Part shown: positions 385 to 24,136 of the stretch, piece by piece
Position numbering within the stretch: position 1 is the stretch's first letter
Layout: each line of letters starts with the position of its first letter
Assembly: GCA_964448245.1 (NCBI GenBank)
Contig: CAYUWF010000004.1
Span: 1-47,898 of the forward strand
Origin: an uncultured Anaerolineaceae bacterium
GTDB lineage: Bacteria; Chloroflexota; Anaerolineae; Anaerolineales; E44-bin32
Length of the DNA: 47,898 nt
Direction: 5' to 3'
Translations under genes and position numbers: made by a program
The notes under the pieces: generated by a model
Seen by the model: only the letters and a program-made list of their open reading frames with translations
Told to the model about the DNA's origin: nothing
Database searches by the model: none

Positions 385-413
385 TGGACATCCGGCGCCT
401 GCCCCGGTAAAAT
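385..413 (+). promoter_or_regulatory. Predicted sigma70-type promoter of rpsT
   Basis: -35 TGGACA (385-390), 17-nt spacer, -10 TAAAAT (408-413). The AT-rich hexamer stands out in a GC-rich background, about 40 nt upstream of the TTG start at 457. Confidence 0.55.
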
Positions 414-456
414 GGGTGGGTTGGCCTCGCCCAGCGCGGGAGCCCGGGAGGAACGG

Positions 457-732: not shown

Positions 733-754
733 CCTGCCCTCGAGCACAATCATG

Positions 755-790
755 GACCACGGCCGCCCTACGGATGGCCGTGGTCTTTCT
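755..790 (+). terminator. Rho-independent terminator after rpsT
   Basis: Perfect 10-bp stem GACCACGGCC (755-764) / GGCCGTGGTC (776-785), 11-nt loop, followed by TTTCTGCTT. Confidence 0.7.
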
Positions 791-804
791 GCTTAATCGC
801 GGCG

Positions 805-813
805 TGCTATAAT
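805..813 (+). promoter_or_regulatory. Extended -10 promoter element upstream of argS
   Basis: TGCTATAAT (TG 805-806, TATAAT 808-813), 24 nt upstream of the GTG start at 837. There is no good -35. The same GTGCTAYAAT motif recurs at 24127-24136 (minus) and 37513-37522 (plus). Confidence 0.5.
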
Positions 814-836
814 CGCCCGCTTCTCCAGAGGGCCTC

Positions 837-2642
837 GTGTTCGAAGCCGAACTTCGCGCCATCGAAGCGCAGATCTTGCAGGCGCTGGAGTCCGCCGGGG
901 CCTCCGTTCCCGGCCCGATCGCCTTTTCTCCGATTCCTTACGCCGGTCGCTGGGGTCTGGGCAGCCCGGTCTGTTTCCAGGCGGCCGCCGCGGAAGCGCG
1001 CAGCGGCCGCCGCGGCCTCGTCCCCGCGCGTGCCGCCGAGCTGGCGGCCCAGATCGCGCCGGCGCTGCGGCCCCCGCCGGGAGTCAGCCGTATCGAAGCC
1101 GACGGCGGGTACCTCAATCTTTATTTCGAGACGGCTCTTTTCGCCGGCCGCGTGGTGGATGAGGTCGAACGGGCGGGCCCCGACTACGGGCGTGGCGCGA
1201 AAAAGGGCGAGCGGGTGATGGTCGAATACGCCCAGCCCAACACTCACCACTCGATCCACATCGGTCACGCCCGAACGGCGGTCCTCGGCGAGTCCCTGGC
1301 CCGCATCGTCGAGTTCGCCGGGTTCGACACGATTCGTGCCTCCTATCCCGGGGACATCGGCCTGGGCGTGATCACCTGCGTCTGGGCCTATCAGAAGCTC
1401 TATCAGGGGCAGGAGCCGGAAGGGGTTCACGCGCGCGGACGCTGGCTGGCCTCGATCTATGCCGAGGCCACGGCCCTTCTCGAGCCCAAGCCCGACGAAA
1501 CCCCGGAAGAGCGTGACCGCCGCCAAGGCTACGACCGGGAGCGGCGGGATATGCTGCGCCGATGGAGCGAGGGCGACCCAGAGGTCCGCGCCCTCTGGGA
1601 GAAGACCCGCCAGTGGAGCCTCGACGAGCTCAACGAAGTCCTGACGCTGCTCGATATCCACATGGACGTCTTTTTCTATGAGAGCCAGGTGGAAGAGACC
1701 GCCAAGGAGATGGTGGAGGAGTTGATCGCCCAGGGCATCGCCGAGGATGAGCGCCCGGCCGGCGGCCCGGTCATCGTCCGGATCGACGAGAAGCTCGGGT
1801 TGAAGGGGGAGAAGTACCGGACGGCCGTCCTGCTGCGCAGCGACGGCACATCGCTCTACCTGACGAAGGACCTGGCCCTGGCCAGGGTCAAGTTCAAGCA
1901 GTATGGGGTCGATCGCTCGATCTACGTCGTCGACGTCCGGCAGAGCCTCCACTTCCAGCAAGCTTTCAAGATCCTCGAGCTGTGGGGCTTCCCCCAGGCG
2001 GCCAAGTGCCATCACCTGGCCTACGGCTTCGTTACCCTGCCTGAGGGCGCGATGTCGTCCCGTCGCGGCAACGTCATCTTCTTCAAGGACGTGTACGACG
2101 AAGCGGTGCGCCGGGTCGAAGCCGTGATCGCCGAGAAGAATCCGGACATGCCGGCCGAGAGGCGGCCGGAGGTGGCGGCCCAGGTCGGCCTGGGGGCCCT
2201 GGCATACGCCCTGCTATCCGTCGACAATACCAAGGACATCGTCTTCGACTGGGACACCGCCCTGAGCTTCGACGGGCAGACCGGGCCCTACCTGCAGAAC
2301 GCCGCCGTCCGGGCCGGCAGCATCCTGCGCAAGGCGGGCGAGGTCCCGCCCCATCCGACCTTCGATCGCGCACTAAGTCCACAGGAAGTCGGCCTGATCG
2401 ACATGGTGGCGCGCTTCCCGGGCGTGGTGCGCCAGGCGGCCGAGGAATACAAGCCGCTACTCGTGGCCAATTACGTCTACGAGCTGGCGCGCCAGTTCCA
2501 TGCCTTCTACCATAGCGATCCCGTGCTGCAGGCGCCGCAGGAGGCGATACGCACCAGCCGTCTGCATCTGACCCGCGCCGTGCGCCAGACGCTGCACAAC
2601 GCCCTTCGCCTGCTGGCGATGGCGACGCCGGAGCAAATGTAG
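837..2642 (+). CDS. argS: Arginine--tRNA ligase
   Basis: Class I HIGH motif (..NTHHSIHIGHARTAVLG..), MSSRRG KMSKS-equivalent, and a C-terminal anticodon-binding region (..ANYVYELARQFHAFY..). 601 aa, GTG start. Confidence 0.95.
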   Translation: MFEAELRAIEAQILQALESAGASVPGPIAFSPIPYAGRWGLGSPVCFQAAAAEARSGRRGLVPARAAELAAQIAPALRPPPGVSRIEADGGYLNLYFETALFAGRVVDEVERAGPDYGRGAKKGERVMVEYAQPNTHHSIHIGHARTAVLGESLARIVEFAGFDTIRASYPGDIGLGVITCVWAYQKLYQGQEPEGVHARGRWLASIYAEATALLEPKPDETPEERDRRQGYDRERRDMLRRWSEGDPEVRALWEKTRQWSLDELNEVLTLLDIHMDVFFYESQVEETAKEMVEELIAQGIAEDERPAGGPVIVRIDEKLGLKGEKYRTAVLLRSDGTSLYLTKDLALARVKFKQYGVDRSIYVVDVRQSLHFQQAFKILELWGFPQAAKCHHLAYGFVTLPEGAMSSRRGNVIFFKDVYDEAVRRVEAVIAEKNPDMPAERRPEVAAQVGLGALAYALLSVDNTKDIVFDWDTALSFDGQTGPYLQNAAVRAGSILRKAGEVPPHPTFDRALSPQEVGLIDMVARFPGVVRQAAEEYKPLLVANYVYELARQFHAFYHSDPVLQAPQEAIRTSRLHLTRAVRQTLHNALRLLAMATPEQM

Positions 2643-2678
2643 GACCCATCCCAACTTCTGCCAGGAGAGCGAACGACC

Positions 2679-4001
2679 ATGCCGAAGAAGAACACTCTGA
2701 TCATGGGTGCCGCCGGCCGGGACTTCCACAATTTCAACGTCGCCTACCGGGAGAACCCCGAGGTCCAGGTGGTGGCCTTCACGGCAACGCAGATCCCGAA
2801 CATCGAGGGGCGGGTCTACCCTGCGGAACTCGCCGGCGCGCACTATCCTCAAGGGATCCCCATTCATTCGGAAACCGAGCTGCTGCGGCTGATCGCGGAG
2901 CTGAAGGTGCACCAGGTCGTCTTTGCCTACAGCGACGTCCCCCATACCTACGTCATGCACAAGGCTTCCCAGGTGCTGGCAGCGGGCGCCGACTTCTGCC
3001 TGCTGGGACCGCGCAGCACGGAGATCGTCTCCAGCAAGGCGGTCGTCTCGATCTGCGCCGCCCGCACCGGCAGCGGGAAGAGCCAGACCTGCCGCCGCGT
3101 GGCCGAGATCCTACGCGGCGCCGGGCATCGGGTCGCCGCCATTCGCCACCCGATGCCCTACGGGGACCTGTCGCGCCAGACAGCGCAGCGCTTCGCCACG
3201 TATGACGACCTGGAAGCGGCGCAATGCACCATCGAGGAACGCGAGGAGTACGAACCCCACCTGGCGCGGGGCGTGCTCGTCTTCGCCGGGGTCGACTATG
3301 GCCAGATCCTACGCATGGCCGAGAAAGAAGCCGACATCATCCTGTGGGACGGGGGCAACAACGATCTGCCCTTCTACCACAGCAACCTGCACATCGTCGT
3401 CGTCGACCCCCACCGGCCGGGGCATGAGATGGCCTACCACCCGGGCGAAGCCAACGTCCGCATGGCCGACGTCATCGTCATCAACAAGGTCGACACCGCC
3501 GCCGCCGAGGGCGTGCTCGCAGTCCGCGACAACCTGGCCCAGCTCAACCCGTCGGCGACGGTAATCGAAGCGGCTTCGCCCATTTTCGTCGACGACCCGG
3601 CGGCGATCCGCGGCAAGCGCGTGTTGGTGGTCGAGGACGGGCCGACGCTGACGCATGGGGAGATGGCTTACGGCGCCGGCTGGGTCGCCGCCCGGCGATT
3701 CGGTGCGGCCGAGATCGTCGATCCGCGGCCCTACGCCGTCGGCAGCATCGCCCAGACCTACGCCAAGTACCCCACCACCGGGGCCGTTCTCCCGGCGATG
3801 GGCTACGGCGACGGACAGGTGCGCGAGCTCGAGCAGACGATCAACAACGCTAAGGCGGATCTGGTGTTGATCGGGACGCCGATCGACCTCGGCCGCCTGA
3901 TGGACCTCAACAAGCCCGCCCAGCGGATCCGCTACGAGCTTCAGGAGATCGGCCAACCGACGCTCAGCGAGATCCTGACCGAGCGTTTCGGCCGCAAGTA
4001 G
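2679..4001 (+). CDS. P-loop GTPase, COG2403 family (often annotated cyclic 2,3-diphosphoglycerate synthetase-like)
   Basis: Walker A AARTGSGKS, WDGGNND, guanine-specificity NKVD (..VIVINKVD..). AGGAGAG RBS upstream of the ATG. Confidence 0.8.
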   Translation: MPKKNTLIMGAAGRDFHNFNVAYRENPEVQVVAFTATQIPNIEGRVYPAELAGAHYPQGIPIHSETELLRLIAELKVHQVVFAYSDVPHTYVMHKASQVLAAGADFCLLGPRSTEIVSSKAVVSICAARTGSGKSQTCRRVAEILRGAGHRVAAIRHPMPYGDLSRQTAQRFATYDDLEAAQCTIEEREEYEPHLARGVLVFAGVDYGQILRMAEKEADIILWDGGNNDLPFYHSNLHIVVVDPHRPGHEMAYHPGEANVRMADVIVINKVDTAAAEGVLAVRDNLAQLNPSATVIEAASPIFVDDPAAIRGKRVLVVEDGPTLTHGEMAYGAGWVAARRFGAAEIVDPRPYAVGSIAQTYAKYPTTGAVLPAMGYGDGQVRELEQTINNAKADLVLIGTPIDLGRLMDLNKPAQRIRYELQEIGQPTLSEILTERFGRK

Positions 4002-4013
4002 CTGCGAGCCGCC

Positions 4014-5309
4014 ATGGCGCGTCGGCGAGCCCGGCCCGTCCGGCTGGCCTGGGAAGCCGGACCACCGGCGGCTCCCCGTCCGGCCCAGCTGACCCGTCAG
4101 TCCCACGTCCCTTCTCCGGACGGAGCCGTGCCGCGCGGACGGCTCATCGAGGGCGACAACCTGGCCGTCATGGGCGCGCTGCTCCCCGAGCTTGAAGCGC
4201 GCATCGACCTGGTCTACATCGATCCGCCTTTCCATTCCGGGAAGACCTTCGCCGCGCGCGTCGGTGGGCGCGAGGACTCGCGCCGGCCGGCGACGTGGGA
4301 AACAATACCGGGGTTCGAAGACCGCTGGCCAGATCTGCCGGCCTACCTCGAGATGCTGCGGCCGCGCCTCGAGCTGATCTATCGTCTCCTCGCCCCGACC
4401 GGTTCGCTTTACGTCCACCTCGACTGGCACATCTCGAGCTACGTCCGCGTCTTGCTCGACGAAATCTTCGGAGCCGAGCGCCTGTTGAATGAGATCGTCT
4501 GGGTTTATCACGGCCCTTCCCCGATCCGTTCGGCCTTTTCGCGCAAGCACGACACCATCCTCGCCTATACGAAGTCAGCCAGGTACACGTTCAATGCCGA
4601 TGCTGTGCGCATCCCGTACGACCCCTCGACGGTGAAAGCCTTTGGCGGGTCCACCAGGGCCGGTTTCGGCAAGACGCCCAACTTGAAGCGAGGCAAAGTC
4701 CCGGAGGACTGGTGGTTCTTCCCCGTCGTCGCCCGGCTGCACCGGGAGCGAACGGGGTATCCAACGCAGAAGCCCTTGGCGCTGCTCGAGCGGATCGTGC
4801 GCGCTTCCAGCAGGCCGGGAGACCTCGTAGCGGACTTCTTCTGTGGATCGGGCACGACGTTGGAGGCGGCTGCCCGGCAGGGCCGGCGGTGGCTCGGGTG
4901 CGACTCGGCCCCCCTCGCCTGCGCCACGACCTATCACCGATTGCTGCTCGACTGTCCGCAGGAGGGCTTCGACTGGATCGCCGACGCCTCTACCGCGCCG
5001 GCTCCCCTCGGCGCCTACGTTCGCCTCATCGTCGAAGGATCGCAAGCGGCGGTCCGCGTAAGCTCGCGCAAGCGGTTCCAGTGGATCGAAGCCGACTGGG
5101 ACGACAAGGGCGAGGCCTTCCAGAGCCAGGCGCGCGCGGCGCGCCCTTGGCGATCCGCCGCCCCCCTTCCCGCACTGATCCACCGCTTCGCCCGCCCGGG
5201 GACCTACCGCGTCGCCGTGCGGGCGGTGGACGCCGCCGGAAAGATTCACATGGCGAGAGTCAACGTGCGGATTCCGCGCCGATCCCCACGCCGATCGCGC
5301 CGGGTCTGA
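4014..5309 (+). CDS. Site-specific DNA methyltransferase, beta-class N6/N4 family (DPPF, probably N6-adenine), with an extra C-terminal Ig/PKD-like region
   Basis: Motif IV LVYIDPPFHSG precedes motif I DFFCGSGTTLEAA (beta-class order). YPTQKPLALLERIV matches the N6_N4_Mtase family pattern. The last ~110 aa lie outside the methylase core. Confidence 0.85.
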   Translation: MARRRARPVRLAWEAGPPAAPRPAQLTRQSHVPSPDGAVPRGRLIEGDNLAVMGALLPELEARIDLVYIDPPFHSGKTFAARVGGREDSRRPATWETIPGFEDRWPDLPAYLEMLRPRLELIYRLLAPTGSLYVHLDWHISSYVRVLLDEIFGAERLLNEIVWVYHGPSPIRSAFSRKHDTILAYTKSARYTFNADAVRIPYDPSTVKAFGGSTRAGFGKTPNLKRGKVPEDWWFFPVVARLHRERTGYPTQKPLALLERIVRASSRPGDLVADFFCGSGTTLEAAARQGRRWLGCDSAPLACATTYHRLLLDCPQEGFDWIADASTAPAPLGAYVRLIVEGSQAAVRVSSRKRFQWIEADWDDKGEAFQSQARAARPWRSAAPLPALIHRFARPGTYRVAVRAVDAAGKIHMARVNVRIPRRSPRRSRRV

Positions 5310-5320
5310 CCCCCGGAGCA

Positions 5321-5523
5321 TTAGTAGGTTGCGGAGAAATGGCTACGGTCGTCAAACCCCCACCCCTGAACCTTGCGACACGGTGCAGGTGAGCATCCCG
5401 TAGGGGCTCCCCCTGCGCCCGCCGCGCCCCGCGTCCCTGGGATTCCTGCAGGGGGGAGGGGATCCCATTTCTGGGGGGGGTTGGGGGGTGAGGGGAGAAG
5501 AGGGTTTTTCAGCAACCTGTTAG
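5321..5523 (-). mobile_element. MITE-like structured repeat, copy A (inverted orientation)
   Basis: The left end TTAGTAGGTTGCGGAGAAATGGCTACGGTCGTCAAACCCCC is the reverse complement of the family 3' end. The right end is ..GGGTTTTTCAGCAACCTGTTAG. The core matches copies C and E in reverse complement (GAGCATCCCGTAGGGGCTCCCCCTGC). Flanked by TA on both sides. Confidence 0.7.
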
Positions 5524-5553
5524 AAAAAAAGGGCGCACCCACCCGGGTGCGCC
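5524..5553 (-). terminator. Rho-independent terminator of the response-regulator gene
   Basis: On the minus strand: stem GGCGCACCC / GGGTGCGCC (5532-5540 / 5545-5553), 4-nt loop, followed by a run of seven T (plus-strand A7 at 5524-5530). Confidence 0.8.
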
Positions 5554-5585
5554 TCGGGCTGACCGGCAAGGGTCTGGCCTGCCGC

Positions 5586-6251
5586 CTACCCCGGCAGGTC
5601 CAGGCGATAACCCATCCCGCGGATTGTCTTCAAAAAGCGTGGTTCGTTCGGGTCCGGCTCGATGGCACGTCGAAGCCAGCTCATGTGGACGTCGAGCGTA
5701 CGCGTGTCGCCGGTGTAGTCCGTGTGCCAGACCTGGCGGATGAGCGAGGCGCGCGTCAGGAGCTTGCCCGGGTTCTGCAGGAAGACCTCCAGCAGGCGGG
5801 CCTCCTTGGGCGTCATGCGCGACACGCGACCGAGGCAGCGCACGGTCCGCTGGGCGAGGTTCAACCGGATCGGCCCGACCTCCAAGACGTAGCGGGTATC
5901 CCCGGGAAGCAGGCGTGCCACGCGATTGATGAGCTTGCGGGGCGTGAACGGGAGAACGAGGACGACACTAGCGCCCTGGATGCTCTCCGGGTCGGTCCCC
6001 TTCGGGGACACGAGCAGGATCGGCACGCCGTTGAGGCCCGCGCGGAGGGCGCGGCACATGCGTGCCCCGCTGGCCTGCATCGAAGCCGCGTCCAGGACGA
6101 CCAGATCGGGCTCGTCCTTCTGCGCATAGGTTAGGGCACCTTCGACGCGGTGATGGACGTTGACCCGGTAGCCTTTCTTCTCAAGAACGGACGCCAGCGA
6201 CGGAGCGCTGGCGCGTCCACTCTCGATCAGAAGGATTGTCGACGAGGTCAT
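5586..6251 (-). CDS. OmpR-family response regulator with an atypical receiver domain
   Basis: Receiver plus winged-helix output (..LTPKEARLLEVFLQNPGKLLTRASLIRQVW..IRGMGYRL..). Start taken at ATG 6251 (MTSSTILLIE..), because the longer ORF-track start at 6338 overlaps the predicted promoter. Confidence 0.85.
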   Translation of the reverse strand: MTSSTILLIESGRASAPSLASVLEKKGYRVNVHHRVEGALTYAQKDEPDLVVLDAASMQASGARMCRALRAGLNGVPILLVSPKGTDPESIQGASVVLVLPFTPRKLINRVARLLPGDTRYVLEVGPIRLNLAQRTVRCLGRVSRMTPKEARLLEVFLQNPGKLLTRASLIRQVWHTDYTGDTRTLDVHMSWLRRAIEPDPNEPRFLKTIRGMGYRLDLPG

Positions 6252-6309
6252 CCGGCCGGGTCCAGGGACGAGACGGCAGCCTGGTCGAGCACCGGCTACC
6301 CTACAGAGG

Positions 6310-6338
6310 ATTATACATGCTTTCTTAAGGTGTGCCAA
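6310..6338 (-). promoter_or_regulatory. Predicted sigma70-type promoter of the response-regulator gene
   Basis: Minus strand: -35 TTGGCA (6333-6338), 17-nt spacer, extended -10 TGTATAAT (6310-6317). Confidence 0.6.
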
Positions 6339-6458
6339 TGAACCGCTGGTTGGAGTGCCGTCGTCGGCGCGGTCCGGCCGACATCGCCTCCGCCCACGCC
6401 TCCACTTGCGCAGAGGGCATCCTGCCTCGTGGCCGCCTGGCGTGGGTATGCCGAAGGT

Positions 6459-7253
6459 CTAGGGTATGGGGGAAGGCGTGAGCGTGCGGGTTGGCGGTGC
6501 GCCGCGGATCTGAAACCGCGCCGAGACTTGCCATTGTGTGCCGATAAACACTTGGATCTCGTACTCGCCCTCCGACCATCCATCCTCGGGGAAGCACTCA
6601 GTGTATCCATAGCCACCGGTCCCGCCATCCCACGGCTTCGTCCCATCATAGCAAACCGGCTGGCCGTCGTGATACCACAGGGCCGACCAGCGGATTCCAT
6701 CCGTCATATGGTCGTAGCTGAACGCTCCATACAGGCGCCCGACGGGATTGTCGAACGCCTCGGCCGGCTGGATCGGGATGTTGAAGTTCGTCAGACTCGT
6801 CGCCACCAGGATCGGGCTCAGGACAGCCTCCGGGCGCGGCGTCACAGCGTCCTGAAACAGCAGGAGGAGCGACTCCGGCAGCATCGGCGTGACCGTCGCC
6901 GTCGGCGTGGGCGTGACGGAGGGCGTCAGGGAAATGCTCGGCGTGACGGTGATGGTGGGCGTCAGCGTGATGGTCGCCGTCGAGGTCGTCGTGCGCGTGG
7001 GGGTGATGGACGGCGTCGGGGGGAAGACGACATAAGCCGCCGGGCGGCCCAGGGCGAAGACCACGACCGACGCCAGGGTCACCGCCGCCGCGACCAGCAG
7101 CAGCCGCCAGGCTTCGGCTGCCTGCTCGCGCCGGAGCAGGTAGTAGCGCAGACGCCCGGTCTGGATGACGCGCCGGACCGCGATCGCACCCAGCACCAGG
7201 CCGGTGAGCACCAGCGTCCAGGCTAACCAGGAGACCGTCTGATCGATCGTCAT
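6459..7253 (-). CDS. Hypothetical membrane-anchored protein with a Thr/Pro-rich linker
   Basis: Two N-terminal hydrophobic helices, a PTPSITPTRTTTSTATITLTPTITVTPS.. linker, and a globular Trp/Gly/Tyr-rich C-terminal domain. The composition is protein-like, unlike the overlapping frames. Confidence 0.6.
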   Translation of the reverse strand: MTIDQTVSWLAWTLVLTGLVLGAIAVRRVIQTGRLRYYLLRREQAAEAWRLLLVAAAVTLASVVVFALGRPAAYVVFPPTPSITPTRTTTSTATITLTPTITVTPSISLTPSVTPTPTATVTPMLPESLLLLFQDAVTPRPEAVLSPILVATSLTNFNIPIQPAEAFDNPVGRLYGAFSYDHMTDGIRWSALWYHDGQPVCYDGTKPWDGGTGGYGYTECFPEDGWSEGEYEIQVFIGTQWQVSARFQIRGAPPTRTLTPSPIP

Positions 7254-12801: not shown

Positions 12802-12836
12802 AAACAAAACGGGGCAGGTGCCGTCGCACCTGCCCC
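12802..12836 (-). terminator. Rho-independent terminator after rpmE
   Basis: Minus strand: 11-bp stem GGGGCAGGTGC / GCACCTGCCCC (12811-12821 / 12826-12836), 4-nt loop, then GTTTTGTTT. Confidence 0.8.
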
Positions 12837-12924
12837 AGTGTACACCAAGCGCCCTTACCTTCGGGTTCCCTTCTCCCGACCTCAAGGGTCGGGGTAGGGT
12901 TAGGGGGGTGAGGCGGAGGCGAGC

Positions 12925-13407
12925 TCAGCCCGCGGCCTCGATGGCCGGCTCCGCCGGCCCGGGAAGCTCGAATCCCCGCTGTCGCAGACGCCGCTTGAGA
13001 TCGATAAGGCTCTTCTGACCGAACCCCTCGACTGAGAGGAGAGCGCTGTCGCCCACCGCCAGCCGCTCGAGGGCCTGCCCGACTTGGGTGATCCCGGCCC
13101 GGGCCAGCGCGTCTTCGGCGCGCTTGCCCAGCTCCAGCTCGGCGATCGCCAACTCGGGCAAGGTCCGGGAGGTCTCGCGCGCCTCCTGGTCCGTCAGGTA
13201 CTCCTGGCGCGCCTGGAGCTTCTTGTAGAAGCGGTCGACCTGCCCTTCCGTGTCGACGATGCGCTGCTCGCCGGTGTAGAAGGGATGGCAGTTCGAACAG
13301 ACGTCGGTGTGGATCACCTCGACCGTCGATCCGGTGTGCCACGTGTTGCCGCACGCACAGGTGACGGTGGCATTCGGAAAGTACTTGGGATGGATCCCGA
13401 CTTTCAT
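12925..13407 (-). CDS. rpmE: 50S ribosomal protein L31 with a ~90-aa C-terminal extension resembling the RpoA C-terminal (HhH) domain
   Basis: [43 protein letters not shown] is canonical L31. The ORF runs on without a stop to 160 aa. Confidence 0.85.
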
Positions 13408-13541: not shown

Positions 13542-13799
13542 CTACGCCTTCGGCAGAACGCTGACGCGGCGGCGTCCGCCGCGGCCGAAATCATAGACGA
13601 CCACACCGTCGGCCGTGGCGAAAAGCGTATCGTCGCTTCCGCGATCGACGTTGCGCCCCGGATGGATGCGCGTGCCGCGCTGACGCACCAGGATGCTGCC
13701 GGAGCGCACCTGCTCGCCGCCGAAGCGCTTGACACCCAGCCGCTGGGAGTGGCTATCCCGTCCATTGCGGCTCGAGCCGCCGCCTTTCTTATGGGCCAT
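13542..13799 (-). CDS. rpmA: 50S ribosomal protein L27
   Basis: [39 protein letters not shown]... Confidence 0.95.
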
Positions 13800-13805
13800 G
13801 GCCGA

Positions 13806-14312
13806 TCAGCCTTTCTTCTTGCTCGGCGTGCGCGCAGCGGGCTTGCCTGGCGCCGGTTTGGCGGGGGCCGGTTTGGCGGGGGCCGGTTTGGCGGCCGCCG
13901 GCCGAAGGGGAGCCGGCTTCGACTTGCGGGGCGTGCCGGCCGTCTTCTTGCCCGCCGGTTGCTTGGCCGGCTCTTCGATCTTCACCCGCCCGAGGCCGGG
14001 GGCCTCGATCTGATCGATCCGCACCCGCGTGTACGTCTGCCGGTGACCGAGCTTGCGCCGCCGCCGTTTCTTCGGCTGGTAGCGGAAGACGACGATCTTT
14101 TCCCCGCGCACTTCGCCTTGAATCGTTCCCAGGACGCGGGCGCCCGCGACCGACGGCGCTCCCACCAGCACCTGCCCGCCGTCCGCGGCCAATAACACTT
14201 CGGAGAATTCGAAGGTCTGACCTTTGTCCCCGTCCAGACGATCGACTTCGAGGTGTTCCCCTTCCCGGGCGATGTATTGCTTGCCGCCCGAGGTGACAAT
14301 GGCGTAGCGCAT
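13806..14312 (-). CDS. rplU: 50S ribosomal protein L21 with a Lys/Ala/Pro-rich C-terminal tail
   Basis: MRYAIVTSGGKQYIAREGE..FRYQPKKRRRRKLGHRQ.. is canonical L21. Start at ATG 14312, because the upstream 137 codons of the ORF-track model are repeat and promoter sequence. Confidence 0.9.
   Translation of the reverse strand: MRYAIVTSGGKQYIAREGEHLEVDRLDGDKGQTFEFSEVLLAADGGQVLVGAPSVAGARVLGTIQGEVRGEKIVVFRYQPKKRRRRKLGHRQTYTRVRIDQIEAPGLGRVKIEEPAKQPAGKKTAGTPRKSKPAPLRPAAAKPAPAKPAPAKPAPGKPAARTPSKKKG
13853..13897. repeat. 15-bp tandem repeat x3 inside rplU (encodes PAKPA repeats)
   Basis: CCGGTTTGGCGGGGG CCGGTTTGGCGGGGG CCGGTTTGGCGGCCG, with a degenerate fourth unit just upstream. Confidence 0.9.
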
Positions 14313-14427: not shown

Positions 14428-14456
14428 ATTGTAACGGCCGGCTTCCCGGTTGTCAA
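14428..14456 (-). promoter_or_regulatory. Consensus-like sigma70 promoter of the rplU-rpmA-rpmE operon
   Basis: Minus strand: -35 TTGACA (14451-14456), 17-nt spacer, -10 TACAAT (14428-14433). About 110-nt leader to ATG 14312. Confidence 0.7.
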
Positions 14457-14770: not shown

Positions 14771-17700
14771 CTACTCGGCGACGACGGCCGTCGACTCCTC
14801 GACCACTACACCGGGGGCCGGCCTCACCACCAAACGCTCATCGTGCAGCATCACCTGCTCGCCGGGAAAGGCGGTTCCGGCCGGGATCAGCTTGCCGATG
14901 ATCACGTTCTCCTTGAGGCCGCGCAGATAGTCGACCTTGCCCTCGATCGCCGCGCCGGCCAGCACCTTGATCGTGTGCTGGAAGGACGAGGCCGAGAGAA
15001 ACGACTCGGTGCTGAGCGAGGCCTTGGTCACCCCGAGCAGGACCGGCACGGCCCGCGCCGGCTGCTTTCCCTCGCCCAACAGGCGCTCGTTAATCGCCTT
15101 GAGGAACAGCCGCTCGACCAGGTCGCCCGGCAGCATGTCGGTGTCGCCGGGGTGGGTGATCTGCACCTTGGAGAGCATCTTGCGGATGATGACCTCGAAG
15201 TGCTTGTCGTTGATGTTCTGCCCCTGTGAGCGGTAGACTTTCTGGACTTCGGTCAGCAGGTAGAGCTCGCAGGCTTCGCCGCCGCTGATGCGCAGGATGC
15301 GATGCGGGTTGAGCGAGCCCTCGGTGATCTGCTGGCCGGCAACGACCTTCTCGCCGTCCTTGACCAGGATGCGACTGCTCGGCGCCACATCATAGACGGC
15401 CTCGTCGATCTGATCGTAGGCGACGGTGACCTTGCGGTCCTCGAGGCGCACGCGCCCGGCGTGGGTGGCGGAGATCTGGGCTTCGCCGCGCGTGGCGATG
15501 ACATCGCCGGCTTTGACCTCGCCGCCGTCCTCGACCCGCAGCGACCAGTTGCCCGGAACGTTGTACTCGTCCTGGATCAGCTCGCTGTTCATCACCTGTA
15601 CCACGCGCTGACCTTCGGCGTGAACCCCGTGAATGATCTTAATCGTCCCGGCGATCTCGGCCGTGATGGCTTCGCCCTTGGGCTTCTTGCGCGCCTCGAA
15701 CAGCTCCTCGACCCGCGGCAGGCCGGTGGTGATATCCCCGCCGGCGGCGACGCCGCCGGTGTGGAAGGTACGCAGGGTGAGCTGGGTCCCCGGCTCGCCG
15801 ATCGACTGAGCGGCGACGATGCCGACGGTCGCCCCCTGCTCGACCATCTCGCCGCGGCCCAGGTCCATCCCGTAGCACGCGACGCACATGCCGAAGGACA
15901 GTTCACACGTCAACGGCGAGCGCACTAAGATCGCTTCCAGGCCCGCCGCCGCCAACCCTCCGGCGACCTCGACGGTGATGTTCTCGCCGCGATCGAGCAT
16001 GATTTCGCCCGTTTGGGGATGGACGACGCGCTCCGCCAAGATGCGCCCCACCATCCGGGCACTGAATTCCTGACCGGCGACGTCGTCCGAACGGCGGATC
16101 CAGATCCCCTGATCGGTCCCGCAGTCGGGCGAACTGATGATCAGGTCCTGGGCCACATCGACCAGGCGCCGCGTCAGGTAGCCGGCGTCGGCCGTGCGCA
16201 GCGCCGTGTCAGTCAGACCCTTGCGGGCGCCGTGGGTCGAGATGAAATACTCCAGCGTGCTCAGCCCGTCACGGAAGTTGGAGCGGATCGGCAGCGGGAT
16301 GATGCGCCCGGACGGGTCCGCCATCAGGCCGCGCATCCCGGCCAACTGCGAGATCGGGCCGAAACCGCCCTTGGTCGCCCCGGAGAGGGCCATCGTGCTC
16401 AGGCTGCCGGCCGGATCCATCCCGCGCCGGACGGCCAAAGCGACCTCGGCCGTCGTCTTCTGCCACAGGTCGATGACGCGCTCGGTCTGCTCTTGTTCGG
16501 TGAGCAAGCCGCGCTGGTAATCCCGTCGCACGATCTCGGCTTCTGCCAGCGTGCGGGCGATGATGGCTTCCTTCTCGGGCGGCACGGCGATGTCGGAGAC
16601 GGCGATCGTCGTCCCGGAGCGCGTGGCGTAGGCGAAACCGATGTCCTTGATGGCGTCGACGACCGCCGGGGTGCCCTCTTCCCGCAGCTGGTTATAGACC
16701 TCGCCCACCAGGTCCTGCATCCCCGCCTTGTCCAGCACCCGGTTGACGAAATGCATCTCCGGCGGCAGGACGCGGTTGAACAGCGCCCGCCCGACGGTGG
16801 TCTCGACGACCTGGATTTCCGGTTGCGACATGCGCCGCCCCTCAGCGTCGTACCAAGTTTCAATCTGCAGCTTGATCGGGGTGTGAACCTCGACCTGGCT
16901 CAGCGCATAGGCCATCTCGACGTCGTCCAAATCAGAGAAAGCGCGTCCCTGCCCGCGGTGCGGACGCCCCGCGCCGGCCATTGTCAGATAGTAGACCCCC
17001 AGGACCATGTCCTTCGACGGGCCGACCACCGGCTCGCCGTCGGCCGGCTTCAGCAGGTTCTTGGCCGAAAGCATCAACCGGCGCGCTTCCTCCACCGCCT
17101 TATCCGACAGCGGCAGGTGGACCGACATCTGGTCGCCGTCGAAGTCGGCGTTGAAAGCAAAACACACCAGCGGGTGAAGGTGGATCGCCTTGCCTTCCAC
17201 CAGGACCGGCTCGAAAGCCTGGATCCCCAGGCGGTGCAGAGTCGGGGCCCGGTTCAGCAGCACCGGCCGGTCGCGGATGACTTCCTCCAGGACCTCCCAC
17301 ACCTCCGGCCGCTCGCGCTCGATGATGCGCTTGGCGCCCTTGACGTTGGCGGCGTAGTTGTAGGAGACGAGCTTGGAGATGACGAATGGCCGATAGAGCT
17401 CGAGCGCCATGGTCTTCGGCAGGCCGCACTGGTAGAGCTTAAGGTGCGGTCCGATGACGATCACCGAACGGCCGGAATAGTCGACACGCTTGCCGAGCAG
17501 GTTGCGCCGGAAGCGGCCTTTCTTCCCCTTGAGCATGTCGCTCAGCGACTTGAGCTCGCGCCGCCCGCGCCGCGAGAGGGCCTTGCCGCGCTGGGCGTTG
17601 TCGATCAGCGAATCGACGGCCTCCTGCAGCATGCGCTTCTCATTGCGCACGATGACGTCCGGCGCGCCGAGCTCCACCAGCCGCTTGAGCCGGTTGTTAC

Positions 17701-19024
17701 GATTGATCACGCGGCGGTAGAGATCGTTGAGGTCCGAAGTGGCGAATCGTCCGCCGTCGAGCTGGACCATCGGCCGCAGGTCGGGGGGGATGACCGGCAG
17801 CACCGTCAGGACCATCCACTCCGGGCGGTTGCCCGAGCGGCGGAAGGCCTCGACGACCTTCAAGCGCTTGGTCGCCTTCTTGCGCCGCTGCTTGCTGCGC
17901 GTTAGGCGGATCTCCTCCCACATCTCCTTGGCCAGGGCTTCCAGGTCCAGCCCGCGCAGGATCTCGTGAAAGGCCTCGGCCCCCATGTCGGCCCGGAAGA
18001 CCTGCCCCCAGCGCACCTTCAGCTCGCGGTAGTTCGACTCGCCCAGGAACATCATCGGGCGAATCCCCGCCAATTCCTCGCGCTCCGCCAGCAGCTTCTG
18101 AACCTCTTCCGAGCTGCCTTCGTCGGCGGTGCTGCGCAGATCGACCAACGCCAGGTCGGTTTCGGCCTTGACGCGTTCGATCCCCAGGCGGATCGCCTCC
18201 AGCTCGTGCTCGCGGCGGTCCTTGAGGGCGGCCTCGATCTGATCGAGGCGCTGCTTGACCGACTTCTGCACCCGCGTCAGGTGCTCGCGGGTGATCTCCT
18301 CGCCCTTCTCGGCGATGACGGTCTCGGTCGCCTTGAAGGCGATCGGCGCCCGGGCCGGTTTGCCCAGCTTCTCGGTGAGCGATGCCTCCAGGCGCTGTCC
18401 TTCCTGGATCACCGGATCGATCTCGGCCGCCACCGTTTCGTCGAAGTTTTCGCGGATCTGGCGGGCCTTGGCTTCCAGGTCGTCGATGTGCTTCTTGCGC
18501 CCGGCCTTGAGAACGGCGATGCGCTGGTTCAGGCCGTCGGCGTGGTCCTTCTCCAACCGGGCGACTTCCTCCTCGATGCGCTTGATCGCCTTGCGCCGCG
18601 CCTCTTCGTCGACGTGGGTAACGACGTACTGCGCGAAGTACAGCACCCGGTCGAGGTTGCGGCGGGAAATGTCGAGCAGCAGGCCGAGGTAGGACGGCAC
18701 GCGCCGCGTGTACCAGACGTGCGCCACCGGTGCCGCCAGGGTGATGTGCGCCATGCGCTCCCGGCGGACGGCGGAGCGCGTCACTTCCACGCCGCACTTC
18801 TCGCAAGTGATGCCCTTGAAGCGGATGTTCTTGTACTTCCCGCAGTAGCACTGCCAGTCTTTCGTCGGGCCGAAGATCGCCTCGCAGAACAGGCCATCCT
18901 TCTCCGGCCGCAGCCGACGATAGTTGATCGTCTCGGGCTTGGTCACCTCGCCGTACGACCAACTCATGATCGTGTCCGGCGAGGCCAGGCTTATCCGTAG
19001 TGCCCGAAATCCCTTGGATTCCAC
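14771..19024 (-). CDS. rpoC: DNA-directed RNA polymerase subunit beta-prime
   Basis: N-terminal zinc motif CYCGKYK..CEKCGVE, catalytic NADFDGDQM, and conserved regions throughout. 1417 aa, with a charged insertion near the N-terminus. Confidence 0.97.
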
Positions 19025-19182
19025 GCTAACCGCCTCCGACCGAGAAGATCCCCTGGGCTCCCCCGTGTCAAGGGTGGAACAAACGTGCTAGGCCTCGAGC
19101 AACGTAAAACCAGCGCCCGAGGGGTCTTCCTCAAGCGCTGATGTGCCGTCAGGCGTCAATATGGAACTGCACGTGCAGAGTA

Positions 19183-19210
19183 TTTTACGTCAACTGGGAC
19201 CGTTGTCAAG
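19183..19210 (-). promoter_or_regulatory. Predicted sigma70-type promoter of rpoC
   Basis: Minus strand: -35 TTGACA (19205-19210), 16-nt spacer, -10 TAAAAT (19183-19188). About 150-nt leader to the rpoC start. Confidence 0.6.
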
Positions 19211-19268
19211 GGTCCGGCGACGATCTCCCCTCCCCTGACCCCTTCGACAACCGGGCCCGCTCCCCGCC

Positions 19269-19499
19269 CCAGGAGGCTGCTGAAAAAGCCCGTTCCCGCC
19301 TCAGCCCCCGACACCTCGCGGACACCGTCCCGGCGCCCTTCCGGGCGCAGTCTGTAAGGCCTCTCCGCCGACACCGCCCGAGCACGAGCGGTTTCGTGGC
19401 GGAGGGGGAGCAGAAGCACTGGGGGAGCCCCTTCGGGATGTCACGGGGGTCAGGGGTGGGGGGTTTGAGGACGGTCGCCATTTTTCAGCAACCTGCTAG
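19269..19499 (+). mobile_element. MITE-like structured repeat, copy B
   Basis: 5' ..AGGAGGCTGCTGAAAAAGCCCGTTCCCGCCTCAGCCCCC.. and 3' ..GGGGTGGGGGGTTTGAGGACGGTCGCCATTTTTCAGCAACCTGCTAG. The terminal CTAG overlaps the argF stop codon. Confidence 0.7.
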
Positions 19500-20497
19500 T
19501 CCCCCAGAGTTGCCACCATCAAGGCTTTGATCGTATGCATCCGGTTCTCAGCCTGGTCGAAGACGATCGAGTGCTCGGACTCGAAAACCTCTTCCGTCAC
19601 CTCCAGCCCGTCCAGCCCACTTTTCTGAAAGATGTCTTCGCCCACCCGGGTTTCGCGATTGTGGAAGGCCGGCAGGCAGTGCATGAATTTGACCTTGGGA
19701 TTGCCGGTCTTGCGGACCACGTCCATGCTCACCTGATACCCCTTGAGCAGCTTGAGGCGCTCGTCCCAGACCTCCTTGGGCTCGCCCATCGAGACCCATA
19801 CATCGGTATACAGGTAATCGACCCCGCCCACCCCATCAGCGACGTTCTCGGTCAGGGTCAGGCGGGCGCCGGTTTCCGCCGCGATCTGCCGGCAGGTCCG
19901 GACCAGCTCGTCCTCGGGCCACAGAGCCTTGGGCGCGCACAACCGCACATCCATCCCCAGCTTGCAGCCCATCACCATCAGGGAGTTGCCCATGTTGTTG
20001 TGCGCATCTCCCAGGTAGCAATAGGCGATCTCGCGCAGGGGTTTCTCGCTGTGCTCCGTCATCGTCAGGACATCGGCCAGCAACTGAGTTGGATGGAACT
20101 TGTCGGTCAGGCCGTTCCACACGGGGACCCCGGCGTAGCGGGCGAGCGTCTCGACCGTCTCCTGCGCGAATCCTCGGTATTCGATCCCGTCGTACAGACG
20201 GCCCAGCACGCGGGCGGTGTCCTTCATCGACTCCTTGTGGCCGATCTGCGATCCTTCCGGCCCGAGATAGGTGACGCGGGCCCCCTGATCGTATGCCGCT
20301 ACTTCGAAGGAACAGCGCGTCCGCGTCGAGGCCTTCTCGAAGATCAAGGCGATGTTCTTCCCCTTCAGACGGGGCTCTTCATAACCTCGGTACTTGGCCA
20401 CCTTCAGCTCGGCCGACAACTTGAGCAGGAACCCGAGTTCCTCAGGCGTGAAGTCGAGCTCCTTGACGAAGCTGCGGTTGCGAAGGTTGAAGGCCAT
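19496..20497 (-). CDS. argF: Ornithine carbamoyltransferase
   Basis: [12 protein letters not shown] carbamoyl-phosphate motif, ..HPTQLLAD.., ..FMHCLPAFH... 333 aa. An anabolic versus catabolic role cannot be decided from sequence. Confidence 0.93.
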
Positions 20498-20546
20498 CTA
20501 TGCGGCTCCTTTCGAAGAAACATTTATTCCGCCGATTCTGCGCCGC

Positions 20547-20757
20547 TCCCCGGGCTGAAGCCCGGTTCAGGTCTAGGGTAGTCCCGTCCCCTAGGCCGGG
20601 TCCGAGAACGCAGCCCGCCCGGGCTAAAGCCGGGCCCACCGTCGGTCTGGCGATCGCAGCCATCGATCGGGCCCCCGTCCGGCTCCTCGTCGGCCCGGCC
20701 ATTAGGTCGGGTCCGAGGACTGCAGCCGCCCGGGCTAATGCCCGGGACTACCGTTGG
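20547..20757. repeat. Cluster of CCCGGGCT(G/A)A(A/T)GCCCGG hairpin repeats, including two ~48-bp direct repeats
   Basis: Hairpin at 20549-20564. Unit 1 at 20598-20645 (GGGTCCGAGAACGCAGCCCGCCCGGGCTAAAGCCGGGCCCACCGTCGG) and unit 2 at 20709-20757 (GGGTCCGAGGACTGCAGCCGCCCGGGCTAATGCCCGGGACTACCGTTGG). Confidence 0.6.
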
Positions 20758-20788
20758 ACACAGCAGGCCCAGCAATACCGCAGGGGGA

Positions 20789-23700
20789 TCACGTGCCTTC
20801 CGGGGCCGATGCCGGAAACGGCCGAGCCTCTCCGTCAATCTGGCGAATCGGGACCTCCAAAGTGAAGACACTGCCGGACCCTAGGCGACTCTCGACCGTC
20901 ACGCGCCCGCCGTGCTGCTCGGCGATCGACTTGACGATCGCCAGACCCAGCCCCGAGCCGCGCTCGCGGGTCGCTTCCGCGGCGCGCGCCCGATAGAACT
21001 TCTCGAACAGCCGCGGCTGATCGGCCGGTGCGATGCCGACGCCCGAGTCCTCCACGCGGAACTGTTGCACCCCGTCGGTTTGTCCGGCGCTGATGCGCAC
21101 TCGCCCCTGGGGCGGTGTGTACTTGATGGCGTTGTCGACCAGATTGGCGACGGCCTGGCGCAGCAGCGTCGGGTCGGCCTCGATCGGCATCAGCGTATCC
21201 GCCACATCGAGTGTCAGCGCCACCTGCTTGTTGGCGGCCTGCGGCCGGTAGGTTTGGACGACCTCCTGCAGGATAGCCGCCGGCTGGATCGTCTCCAGAC
21301 TCAGGCCCACCCCGGCTTCGATCCGTCCCAGGTCGAGCAGGCCGTCGACCAGGCGGCCCATCTGGTCGACGCTGTCAAGGATCTTGCGGGCGAAATCCTT
21401 CTGCTGATCGTTGAGCGAGCCGACCATCGAGAGCATCGTGCCGTAGCCGCGCATCAGGGTGAGCGGAGTCCGCAGATCATGGCTCACCGTTGCCACGAAC
21501 TCCGACTTGAGCATATCGAGCTTCTTGTAGTGAGTGATGTCGCGCAGGACGCACACCCGGCCGCCGCGGTGCGGCCCGACGCTCTCGACCTCGAGCACCG
21601 AGGCGTAGAGCACACGCCCTCCGGGCAGGCCGATCTCGCCGCTGGCGGCGCCCGTGCCGCGCAGCATTTCCACCAGTCGCGCCACGGAGACCACCTCCTC
21701 GACCGGCTTGCGCCGCGCCTGCTCCGGGCTGACGCGCAGCACCATTTCCGCCGCCGGGTTGGCCAGGGCGATTGCCCCGCGCGGATCGATCAGCAGCACC
21801 CCGTCCGGCGTGGCCTCGAGCGTCGCCGCCAGGCGCAGCCGCTCCTGCTCCGCCCGTTGATACAATCGGGCGTTGGCCACCGACACGCCCAGCTGACCGG
21901 CCAAGATCGTCAGCAGGCTCGTCTCGTCGTTGGTGAACAAGTGCGGCCGGCGGTATCCGATCCACAGCGCGCCGACGAACTCCTCCTCGTTCCGCATCGG
22001 CAGCGCCAGTAGGCCTTCGAGAGGCTCGGTCAGCAGGCGCAGGTCGAGCACCGCCCGCGCCCGCCCTGGGTTCTCCAGGACGAAGCGGCCGCGCTCGCGG
22101 CTCAACGCCAGGAGCTGAGCATCAAGAGCTGTCCAGCCTCCCGGATCGATCCCGGCCTGGAAAGTTTCCAGGTCCGGCGACTCACCCTCGCGGGGCGTCA
22201 GCGCCACACGCACCAGGTCGCTCTCGGTCAGATCCTGCACGCCGATCAGGATCGGCGGCATCACTTCCGGCAGGTTGAAGGTGGCCGCCATGCGCTGCGT
22301 CGCCTGGAGCAGCAGATCCATTTCGTTCAGCCGGGTCTTTAGGCCGCGCCGCATCCGCTCCAACGCCGCCGCCAGCCGGCCGACTTCGTCCTCACCGATG
22401 CCGGGCACGGGCCGGTCGAGATTGCCGCGGGCGATGGACTCGGCGGCCAGGGTCATCTGGCGCAGCGGCCGGGTAAGGCCGCGGCTGACGGCGTACGTCA
22501 ACAGGACGACCACCACGCCGGCTACGGCGATCACGGCGAACAGCCGCGCGGCGATGGGAATAGCGAGCCGGTCGACACCGGATTGGGGAACGGTCAGGAC
22601 GATGGTCCACGCATGCCCCGGCACGGGGTAGACGTAGGCCAGCTGCGCCGTCCCGTCGAGCGCCGTCACGGCAAACGCCTCGCCGCCGATCGACTCGGCT
22701 AGCACCGTCATGTCGCCGACCTGGGAGGGATCAGTGTGAAGCAGGATCGTCCCGTCCTCAGCCACGAGCATCGCCGCGCCATCCGGGAACTTCCGGATGA
22801 CCGCCGCCACCGGCTGCAGCATCGGATTCGTCGCCAGATCGGTCCACCCGGCGAGCACGCCGACGACGGCCGTGCCATCCGCGGATCGCACCGGCGAAAA
22901 GAAGATGGTCTGTGAGCCCGGCGGGTGAGAACCGACGGATACGCTCACTTCTTGCGGCACCCCGGCCAGCGCCGCGGCCAGCGCCACCTCCACTTCAAGG
23001 CCGAACTTCGGCGGACCTTCGTCCGTCAGCGAGGCGGCGGCCGCCATCGCCCCGGATCCGTCGAAGAACGCCGCCTGTTGGAAGAACGGAAAGGTATCCA
23101 GCACTCGCCGCAGGCCCTCCGGCGAGGCCGGCACCGGCCCTCCCGAGGGCTCGAGCTGATCCGCCGCCTGCTGCAAGAAGGAGCGTCCGCTCTGTCCGAA
23201 GAACGGCACACCACCGCCGGCCTGCACCGCGGTTTGCGCCATCTGGTTCTCGACGAGCTCACGGGCCGAGCTGCGCACCAGAACCCAATTCCCGATGAGC
23301 AGCACCACCGCCGCCACCATCCCCACCAGGAGAAAAAAGGCCACCATGCGCGCGCCGAGAGACCGCAGGTAGGGAGCCGACGACAGAGGCGTCGGTCGCT
23401 TCCAGCGCGCCGGAGCCATGAACAGCGCCACCTCTGCTGCGAGGCCGGCCAGGATGGCTTCGAGCAGCGCCGCCTGGAGGACGACGCCTCCCTGCGCGAC
23501 AACGTACTCGGCTCCGTCGAGGGGGGACCCGCCGCTGTAGACAAAGAGCTCGAGGCAGCGGGCCAGCCCGTAGACCAATCCACCGACGAGCGCCGCCACT
23601 ACCGGTCGACGCGCCGCCGACCCCATCGCGTCGCGATAGGGTCGCTGAAGTACCCACGCCATCAGGGCCGCCGACAGCGCCAAGTCGAGCGGGGTAAGCA

Positions 23701-24094
23701 GACTGTGGGTGTACCAACCTCCGACGACGAGTCCCGCCGCCAAGCCGACGGCGGCTGCCGGCGCGACCCCCAACCACCCCGCGGCAATGACCAGCGGGAT
23801 CATGCCGATCAGCTGCGCCGCCTGTGCCGTTGGTTGCAGAGGGAGTCCGGGGGTCGTCAGGCTGCCCGGCGCCGGGAAATACACCACCACTACCGCTTGC
23901 GCCGCCAGCCCGGCCAGCAGCAGAGCCCCGGGCAGCGGCCAGCCCAGGGCGATCGGCGCCTCATGACGCCTTCGATGGTCGATGACGATCCAGATGAAAA
24001 CGAGCAGGGAGAGGCCGACAAGCAGGAAGCCAGACGAGCGCTGCGGCAACCCGAAACCGAACGCGTCTGTGAGTCCCCAGGTTTCGAAAGTCAT
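20789..24094 (-). CDS. Multi-domain membrane sensor histidine kinase
   Basis: Long polytopic N-terminal membrane region, an extracytoplasmic segment, a HAMP-like linker, and GAF- and PAS-like regions. H-box SHDLRTPLTLMRGY, N-box DNAIKYTPPQG, G-boxes DSGVGI and GSGLGLAI. Confidence 0.9.
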   Translation of the reverse strand: MTFETWGLTDAFGFGLPQRSSGFLLVGLSLLVFIWIVIDHRRRHEAPIALGWPLPGALLLAGLAAQAVVVVYFPAPGSLTTPGLPLQPTAQAAQLIGMIPLVIAAGWLGVAPAAAVGLAAGLVVGGWYTHSLLTPLDLALSAALMAWVLQRPYRDAMGSAARRPVVAALVGGLVYGLARCLELFVYSGGSPLDGAEYVVAQGGVVLQAALLEAILAGLAAEVALFMAPARWKRPTPLSSAPYLRSLGARMVAFFLLVGMVAAVVLLIGNWVLVRSSARELVENQMAQTAVQAGGGVPFFGQSGRSFLQQAADQLEPSGGPVPASPEGLRRVLDTFPFFQQAAFFDGSGAMAAAASLTDEGPPKFGLEVEVALAAALAGVPQEVSVSVGSHPPGSQTIFFSPVRSADGTAVVGVLAGWTDLATNPMLQPVAAVIRKFPDGAAMLVAEDGTILLHTDPSQVGDMTVLAESIGGEAFAVTALDGTAQLAYVYPVPGHAWTIVLTVPQSGVDRLAIPIAARLFAVIAVAGVVVVLLTYAVSRGLTRPLRQMTLAAESIARGNLDRPVPGIGEDEVGRLAAALERMRRGLKTRLNEMDLLLQATQRMAATFNLPEVMPPILIGVQDLTESDLVRVALTPREGESPDLETFQAGIDPGGWTALDAQLLALSRERGRFVLENPGRARAVLDLRLLTEPLEGLLALPMRNEEEFVGALWIGYRRPHLFTNDETSLLTILAGQLGVSVANARLYQRAEQERLRLAATLEATPDGVLLIDPRGAIALANPAAEMVLRVSPEQARRKPVEEVVSVARLVEMLRGTGAASGEIGLPGGRVLYASVLEVESVGPHRGGRVCVLRDITHYKKLDMLKSEFVATVSHDLRTPLTLMRGYGTMLSMVGSLNDQQKDFARKILDSVDQMGRLVDGLLDLGRIEAGVGLSLETIQPAAILQEVVQTYRPQAANKQVALTLDVADTLMPIEADPTLLRQAVANLVDNAIKYTPPQGRVRISAGQTDGVQQFRVEDSGVGIAPADQPRLFEKFYRARAAEATRERGSGLGLAIVKSIAEQHGGRVTVESRLGSGSVFTLEVPIRQIDGEARPFPASAPEGT

Positions 24095-24126
24095 CCCAGT
24101 CGGCTTTGGGGTGCCACGCCAAGCGG

Positions 24127-24136
24127 ATTATAGCAC
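24127..24136 (-). promoter_or_regulatory. Extended -10 element for the large sensor kinase gene
   Basis: The minus strand reads GTGCTATAAT, about 30 nt upstream of the ATG at 24094. No clear -35. Confidence 0.45.

Follow-up and report, generated by a model that had tools for sequence, protein, structure and literature searches.

Does a protein that bridges the two ribosomal subunits carry, in a whole group of bacteria, a domain taken from RNA polymerase, and if so, what might such a domain do there? This question is raised by a 47,898-nucleotide stretch of DNA from an uncultured Anaerolineaceae bacterium (contig CAYUWF010000004.1; hereafter the window, 68% G+C), in which the rpmE gene at 12925..13407 of the minus strand (160 codons plus stop) encodes ribosomal protein bL31 and then, in the same reading frame, a domain resembling the C-terminal domain of the RNA polymerase alpha subunit (alpha-CTD). 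To our knowledge, no bridge between the subunits other than that made by bL31 consists of protein alone, and bL31 moves with the 30S head as the head swivels. A polymerase-derived domain fixed at this protein across a bacterial class is a natural experiment in ribosome specialisation.

The reading frame opens with an ATG preceded by a GGAGG 8 nt upstream, and its first 64 residues (13216..13407, minus strand) are an ordinary bL31 core. The Pfam model Ribosomal_L31 (PF01197) matches residues 1-64 over positions 1-64 of its 65 with an E-value of 4.5e-28 and 97.7 bits (cutoff 27), and two NCBIfam L31 equivalogs score above their cutoffs (NF000612, 96.6 bits against 70; TIGR00105, 87.4 against 38.35), whereas the type B model NF002462 stays below its own (53.5 against 86). 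The four cysteines, C17, C19, C37 and C40, form the CxC...CxxC zinc ribbon of type A bL31 and vary little or not at all among family members. In E. coli the protein ends with the DRFYKKL segment, which binds the 30S head; in the fusion this segment is kept as VDRFYKKL and the sequence then runs on past it. A predicted helical linker follows (residues 65-86; 13150..13215, minus strand), with a conserved TSPE motif at its end, and leads into the alpha-CTD-like domain (residues 87-148; 12964..13149, minus strand). The protein closes with an acidic, proline-rich tail (residues 149-160; 12928..12963, minus strand) that is poorly conserved apart from P149, has a mean net charge of -2.3 and is modelled by AlphaFold with a pLDDT below 50.

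The identity of the second domain was first examined with sequence profiles. The earlier note on this DNA had proposed that L31 is joined to an alpha-CTD-like domain in one reading frame and had suggested a profile search as a check; Pfam RNA_pol_A_CTD (PF03118) does match residues 80-142, with an E-value of 1.1e-7 and 31.9 bits against a gathering score of 23.8, and the C-terminal fragment submitted alone reaches 33.7 bits against the same gathering score. The string on which the proposal had been based, IAELELGK...GFEL, was quoted with the correct letters and the wrong position, as it spans residues 88-148 rather than 95-155, and the note left the strand, which is minus, unstated. Eight NCBIfam rpoA equivalogs match within the C-terminal third of the fusion, at 20-38 bits against cutoffs of 228-523, and the N-terminal dimerisation and assembly domains of RpoA (PF01193 and PF01000) are absent from the protein; judged by these profiles, the fusion protein is not an RNA polymerase subunit. 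When residues 64-160 were compared with PDB sequences by phmmer, the matches were almost exclusively RpoA, the best being the CTD of mycobacterial (Mtb) RpoA at an E-value of 5e-5. Conserved positions of the L31 CTD include L91, R96 (equivalent to E. coli R265), G119, F129, G130 (G296), K132 (K298), S133 (S299), K138, K/R139, R/K142 and G145.

Structure prediction gives the same picture. In the whole-protein AlphaFold model (pLDDT 73, pTM 0.42) the L31 beta-ribbon is followed by a long helix over residues 56-81 and then by a helical bundle, the whole being arranged as two independent parts. Foldseek searches with this model were dominated by bL31, the best 33 matches being bL31 chains of 70S or 50S structures and RpoA appearing from rank 34 down, and for this reason a second model was made of residues 79-160 only. 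This CTD-only model (82 residues) has a pLDDT of 79, rising to 84-91 over residues 89-148 (model positions 11-70), and all of its top 50 PDB matches in Foldseek are RNA polymerase alpha-CTDs, the outcome that would be expected if the earlier note's proposal was right. The closest is that of S. coelicolor (7vpd_S), with a TM-score of 0.91, an rmsd of 0.9 A over 58 residues and 38% identity, and E. coli 1lb2_E follows the model with a TM-score of 0.82. Residues 87-148 are therefore predicted to have the compact double helix-hairpin-helix fold of the alpha-CTD.

A single reading frame might be fused by accident, and the distribution of the architecture speaks to this directly. In a collection of 5.8 billion proteins, all 120 of the best homologues carry both PF01197 and PF03118, at lengths of 155-185 aa and identities of 70-95%. 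When one genome was scanned for each GTDB species, at least 471 relatives were found, and the best 80 of these are full-length fusions at 63-93% identity, each matching the query from residue 1 as far as residue 146 or beyond. The concern that a stop codon or frameshift had been missed is thus answered by an uninterrupted frame in each of these 80 species genomes and in 120 of 120 best protein matches. Among the same best 80, almost all labels, which are the record titles of metagenome-assembled genomes (MAGs), read Anaerolineales, Anaerolineaceae, Anaerolineae or Bellilinea, and the rest are mostly the generic "Chloroflexia" or "Chloroflexota". Two labels stand apart. One full-length fusion, with 79% identity (L034, 3481..3930), is carried by a 4.5-kb contig whose MAG bears the label Candidatus Aquidulcis (class Limnocylindria), so that either the fusion extends beyond the Anaerolineae or this contig was mis-binned; another locus (L038) is labelled "beta proteobacterium" and looks like a mislabelled MAG.

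At the nucleotide level, a simple pattern parse recovered an intact frame of 155-171 aa in 72 loci, namely the window and 71 of 81 related loci (L001 plus L002-L081). Third-position G+C content is 0.82-1.00 in all four parts of the frame, and since the frame is intact in 72 orthologous loci and this composition is even throughout, chance and artefact can be excluded as the source of the extra domain. Estimates of pN/pS by the Nei-Gojobori method, rough values because synonymous sites are saturated, are 0.14-0.17 for the L31 core, 0.40-0.57 for the linker, 0.37-0.43 for the CTD and 0.52-0.59 for the tail. The extra domain is thus under purifying selection, at a pN/pS of about 0.4 compared with about 0.15 in the L31 core. 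The length of the linker is constant, without gaps even against the distant members P0131 (59% identity) and P0173 (53%), and these distant members too bear Anaerolineae names, a cluster mate of P0173 being an "Anaerolineae bacterium". Since neither the junction nor the length of the linker varies, the fusion would have arisen in a single event. In this clade of Anaerolineae (Chloroflexota), bL31 is a fixed two-domain protein.

The genomic setting is equally constant. On the minus strand of the window the order is rpoC, rplU, rpmA, the rpmE fusion, tdk and hpt, followed by a gene resembling the CCA-adding enzyme. The order L21, L27, L31 fusion is found in 82 of 82 loci (window included), usually followed by genes for TK and HPRT (tdk and hpt), so that the earlier note was right to place rpmE third in the rplU-rpmA operon. 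In the window, rplU (bL21, 168 aa; 13806..14312, minus strand) is the first gene of the unit and rpmA (bL27; 13542..13799, minus strand) lies directly upstream of rpmE; the orthologue of the latter neighbour at locus L001 matches PF01016. The spacer between rpmA and rpmE varies from 3 to 256 nt among orthologues. A candidate sigma-70-like promoter (TTGACA-17-TACAAT, 14428..14456, minus strand), which is a consensus match of 11 of 12 positions and nothing further, lies upstream of rplU, and a hairpin resembling an intrinsic terminator, with 12 pairs (9 GC) and a T-run, lies 3' of rpmE at 12810..12837 of the minus strand, where it would end the rplU-rpmA-rpmE transcription unit. An Rfam scan of the whole window matched no family, including any known ribosomal-protein leader next to rpmE. 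E. coli, by contrast, has a monocistronic rpmE apart from its rplU-rpmA operon (PMC7297116), and the position of rpmE as third cistron of rplU-rpmA is therefore a feature of the clade.

Several other features of the window deserve mention in their own right. Its bL21 has a normal core of about 105 aa and then a tail of some 60 aa that is rich in Lys, Ala and Pro, repeats the motif AKPAP and has a histone H1-like look; the orthologue at L001 is 167 aa long. A short perfect hairpin, CCCGACC-CTTGA-GGTCGGG, precedes the terminator in the C-rich 3' untranslated region of rpmE (12838..12924, minus strand). A two-domain bL25 of the TL5/CTC type is encoded at 39022..39825 (minus strand), and the transcription-repair coupling factor Mfd at 41909..45463 (plus strand). 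The rpoC gene (1417 aa; the region 14771..24127 of the minus strand) is without rpoB upstream, and is preceded instead by an Asp/Orn carbamoyltransferase gene (19496..20497) and a gene for a HAMP/GAF/PAS histidine kinase (20789..24127). The corresponding stretch of L001 is 1..6973, and on a related 2.09-Mb contig a histidine kinase gene is directly upstream of rpoC, again with no rpoB there. The two polymerase genes appear to be unlinked in this lineage, an arrangement that is unusual for bacteria.

Where did the second domain come from? A HMMER search of 1.84 billion representative proteins with residues 64-160 gave 557 matches, and the best 150 of these include many L31 fusions, in full length or as fragments, together with small stand-alone CTD proteins and seven true RpoA (those with an RNA_pol_L match). 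Among the same best matches, P0126-P0270 also contain about 11 proteins with TPR repeats and two CTDs, arrays of three to seven CTDs, and CTDs linked to GH18 or GNVR domains, while Sigma70_r4 accompanies PF03118 in 14 of the 149 closest relatives. One hit of the representative search, the insect GYR-repeat protein P0125, was set aside as a low-complexity false positive. A further search with the RpoA protein P0134 as query returned 119 RpoA proteins, some named Chloroflexota, Chloroflexi or Anaerolineae, and the RpoA contigs that were looked up (P0322, P0363 and P0389) have the normal S13-S11-S4-rpoA-L17 context.

All 119 of these lineage RpoAs retain at least one CTD, which rules out the idea that the domain was relocated from RpoA to L31; because RpoA keeps its own CTD, the L31 domain is an extra copy. 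No assembly is common to the RpoA records (JAFNGV01, BAAHIN01, a JGI contig and Logan contigs) and the L31 loci, and neither rpoA nor a second L31 gene is present within the window and the loci, which cover about 4 kb on each side. The mean identity of the L31 CTD is 0.42-0.44 to the RpoA CTDs of the lineage, compared with 0.30-0.31 to that of E. coli and 0.34-0.36 to that of M. tuberculosis, and the L31 and lineage RpoA CTDs have in common a three-residue insertion and a nearly invariant glycine (G119 in the window) that are absent from E. coli and from the Pfam consensus. A bootstrapped neighbour-joining tree of the 62-column CTD alignment recovered monophyly of the L31 CTDs in 6 of 100 replicates. 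As the tree lacks support, it is the mean identity and the shared insertion that speak for descent, and they make the 3' end of the rpoA gene of the same lineage the probable source of the extra domain.

RpoA itself is not uniform in this group. Two tandem alpha-CTDs are found in 17 of the 119 Chloroflexota/Anaerolineae-type RpoAs, at 382-424 aa (P0281-P0298 and P0307; also P0134 and P0146). In the second CTD of these proteins the K298 position has degenerated (Q47/K35), and positions 293/294 read P/G instead of R/N. One partial RpoA, P0257, has three CTD copies.

If the domain is a copy, the next question is how far it has drifted from its presumed parent. To address this, 72 L31 copies were compared with the first CTD (CTD1) of the lineage RpoAs in E. 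coli numbering, with E. coli RpoA, L31 and YkgM as reference sequences. The residues R265, N268, C269, N294, G296, K298 and S299 make up the "265 determinant" for binding of UP-element DNA in E. coli, and are known from alanine scans and the CAP-alphaCTD-DNA structure. All seven are 100% conserved in CTD1 of the lineage RpoAs. The L31 copy retains R265, G296 and K298 in 100% and S299 in 99% of cases, but the determinant is incomplete: N268 is replaced by E (40%), D (19%) or S (12%), C269 by A (78%) and N294 by G (97%). Outside the determinant, R293, invariant in RpoA CTD1, is D or E in 97% of the L31 copies, and K271 (99% in RpoA) is A in 61%. The last helix has changed in the other direction, with fixed basic residues at K138 (100%; L, M or V in RpoA), K/R139 (100%; E, T or A in RpoA) and R/K142 (100%), and with R131 in 94% of the L31 copies; residues 131-144 have a net charge of +4 to +7 within a domain that is near neutral as a whole (mean +0.7). 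From the alignment, the putative phosphate-binding hairpin is kept, part of the predicted minor-groove face is lost and made acidic, and what looks like a basic ridge has been added. Such changes are those of a paralogue that would have taken on a new function, and the pair formed by the RpoA CTD and the L31 CTD separates the alpha-CTD residues that the polymerase requires from those that were free to change.

What that function might be depends in the first instance on where the domain sits. E. coli bL31 makes bridges B1b/B1c by holding on to both subunits, its N-terminal domain to uL5 at the central protuberance and its C-terminal part to uS13, uS14, uS19 and h42 of the 30S head (PMC7297116). 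We infer from sequence identity and the ribosomal-protein operon context that the fusion is incorporated at the same bridges, and because the C-terminal segment of bL31 binds the 30S head and is kept here, the extra domain should sit on the ribosome. It would ride there on a short rigid spacer, projecting from the top of the 30S head and held some 20-25 residues away from it. In such a position it would most likely serve as a tethered helix-hairpin-helix module that binds RNA, whether head rRNA, mRNA or tRNA, or else a protein associated with the ribosome, and would modulate the B1b/B1c bridge region. We consider a tethered role of this kind, in binding RNA or protein near the head and the bridges, the most likely of the readings, at about even odds. 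Two observations weigh against it: the near-zero net charge of the domain is atypical for an rRNA-binding extension, and the residues that form the core of the nucleic-acid-binding hairpin (R265, G296, K298 and S299) are fully conserved, or within a single percent of it, making DNA binding possible.

An alternative use of the same position would be as a coupling device, in which a ribosome-borne alpha-CTD mimic docks the N-terminal domain (NTD) of NusA, region 4 of sigma or activators and so links the lead ribosome to the transcription complex. We know of no study of transcription-translation coupling in Chloroflexota. The 30S head also carries uS3 and uS10 near the mRNA entry, and the predicted fold of the L31 domain is that of a true alpha-CTD, the alpha-CTD chains of NusA-containing E. 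coli TTC-B coupling complexes (8y5l and 8y5t) being among the Foldseek matches of the CTD-only model. The equivalent of E261, the sigma-contact determinant of the alpha-CTD, is E in 68% of the fusions, and the joint occurrence of Sigma70_r4 and PF03118 among the closest relatives described above is in keeping with a sigma partner. Partner surfaces may nevertheless have been lost, because many surface positions that are invariant in RpoA are changed in the L31 copy (E89, Y98, N99, C100, K102, R127 and N128 in window numbering). In E. coli the alpha-CTDs do bind the NusA NTD and AR2 (PMC5842316) and the C-terminus of bL31 is located on the 30S head (PMC7297116). Its place at the top of the head, however, is away from the RNA polymerase docking sites seen in that organism. 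On this evidence a coupling device is unlikely. The broader form of the proposal, that the Anaerolineae 30S head bears an alpha-CTD mimic docking NusA, sigma, RNA polymerase-associated factors or DNA as a hard-wired link between translation and transcription, we regard as distinctly unlikely.

The conserved hairpin core invites yet another reading, in which the domain binds DNA, either tethering ribosomes to the nucleoid or allowing free L31 to compete with the alpha-CTD of RpoA. In the latter, feedback form, L31 in excess over rRNA would act at UP elements or activators to tune the transcription of rRNA and ribosomal-protein genes, and there is a precedent of sorts in the extraribosomal autoregulatory role of E. 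coli bL31 (PMC7297116). The 99-100% conservation of the R265, G296, K298 and S299 equivalents fits such a role, but the N268, C269 and N294 equivalents, which the lineage RpoAs keep at 100%, are lost, and acidic residues occupy positions 268 and 293, beside the DNA-contact face. Because three DNA-binding residues that are invariant in RpoA have been lost, the earlier note's suggestion of contacts between the ribosome and RNA polymerase, nucleic acids or factors is narrowed: by its residues, the L31 CTD is probably unable to bind promoter UP-element DNA in the way of a true alpha-CTD, and a DNA-binding or feedback role in general is very doubtful.

Finally, the fusion might be an artefact, whether two separate genes, an error of frameshift or read-through, or a pseudo-fusion so recent that its passenger domain is still decaying, as a 79-aa RefSeq record comprising the CTD alone (WP_236839300.1) could be taken to imply; but this is scarcely credible, as two Bellilinea loci (L070 and L080, both 4001..4477) have an uninterrupted 158-codon reading frame whose last 79 codons encode that record with 100% identity, which rules out a split gene, while the window protein has no Met at the internal start position of the record, the 72 parsed orthologues are intact and the CTD has a pN/pS below 0.45.

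The RefSeq record does illustrate how inconsistently the gene has been annotated. It is named "RNA polymerase alpha CTD domain-containing protein", occurs on a 3.7-Mb contig as well and is an under-call that conceals the fusion, whereas JGI and some NCBI records name the full reading frame "L31". Such inconsistency makes the architecture easy to miss; it is already visible in precomputed Pfam annotations. A full-text literature search found no publication describing an L31-alpha-CTD fusion, and papers identified as naming both "bL31" and "Chloroflexi" are silent on it. Taken together, a clade-wide bL31 with an accessory domain derived from RNA polymerase is genuine and conserved, a variant of the ribosome that has yet to be described, and the fusion is a testable candidate for contact between the ribosome and nucleic acids or transcription factors in Chloroflexota.

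How does this variant compare with what is known? The canonical type A bL31 of E. coli and T. thermophilus matches the same full L31 models and has the same four-cysteine ribbon, the same DRF-basic segment for the 30S head and the same fold; the fusion differs in adding about 95 C-terminal residues, made up of spacer, globular domain and tail, and, relative to E. coli, in being encoded by the third cistron of rplU-rpmA rather than by a monocistronic gene. With the RpoA CTD of Chloroflexota and Anaerolineae it shares the predicted fold, the LELxxR...GFGxKSL pattern with R265, G296, K298 and S299, and the three-residue insertion with its glycine. In contrast to RpoA, the L31 copy comes without the RpoA N-terminal domain, has the equivalents of N268, C269, K271, R293 and N294 replaced and bears a new invariant basic stripe on its last helix. 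Other non-RpoA proteins with PF03118, which are among its closest sequence relatives, likewise show the alpha-CTD as a mobile module outside RNA polymerase, but none of them is a ribosomal protein. The link proposed for Anaerolineae, a protein built into the ribosome, would differ from the NusG/NusA bridges of E. coli. Perhaps the nearest parallel within the ribosome is bL25 with its TL5/CTC domain, which is likewise a conserved extra domain on a small protein of the central protuberance and head region; there the addition is an rRNA-binding beta-barrel, whereas on L31 it comes from the transcription machinery.
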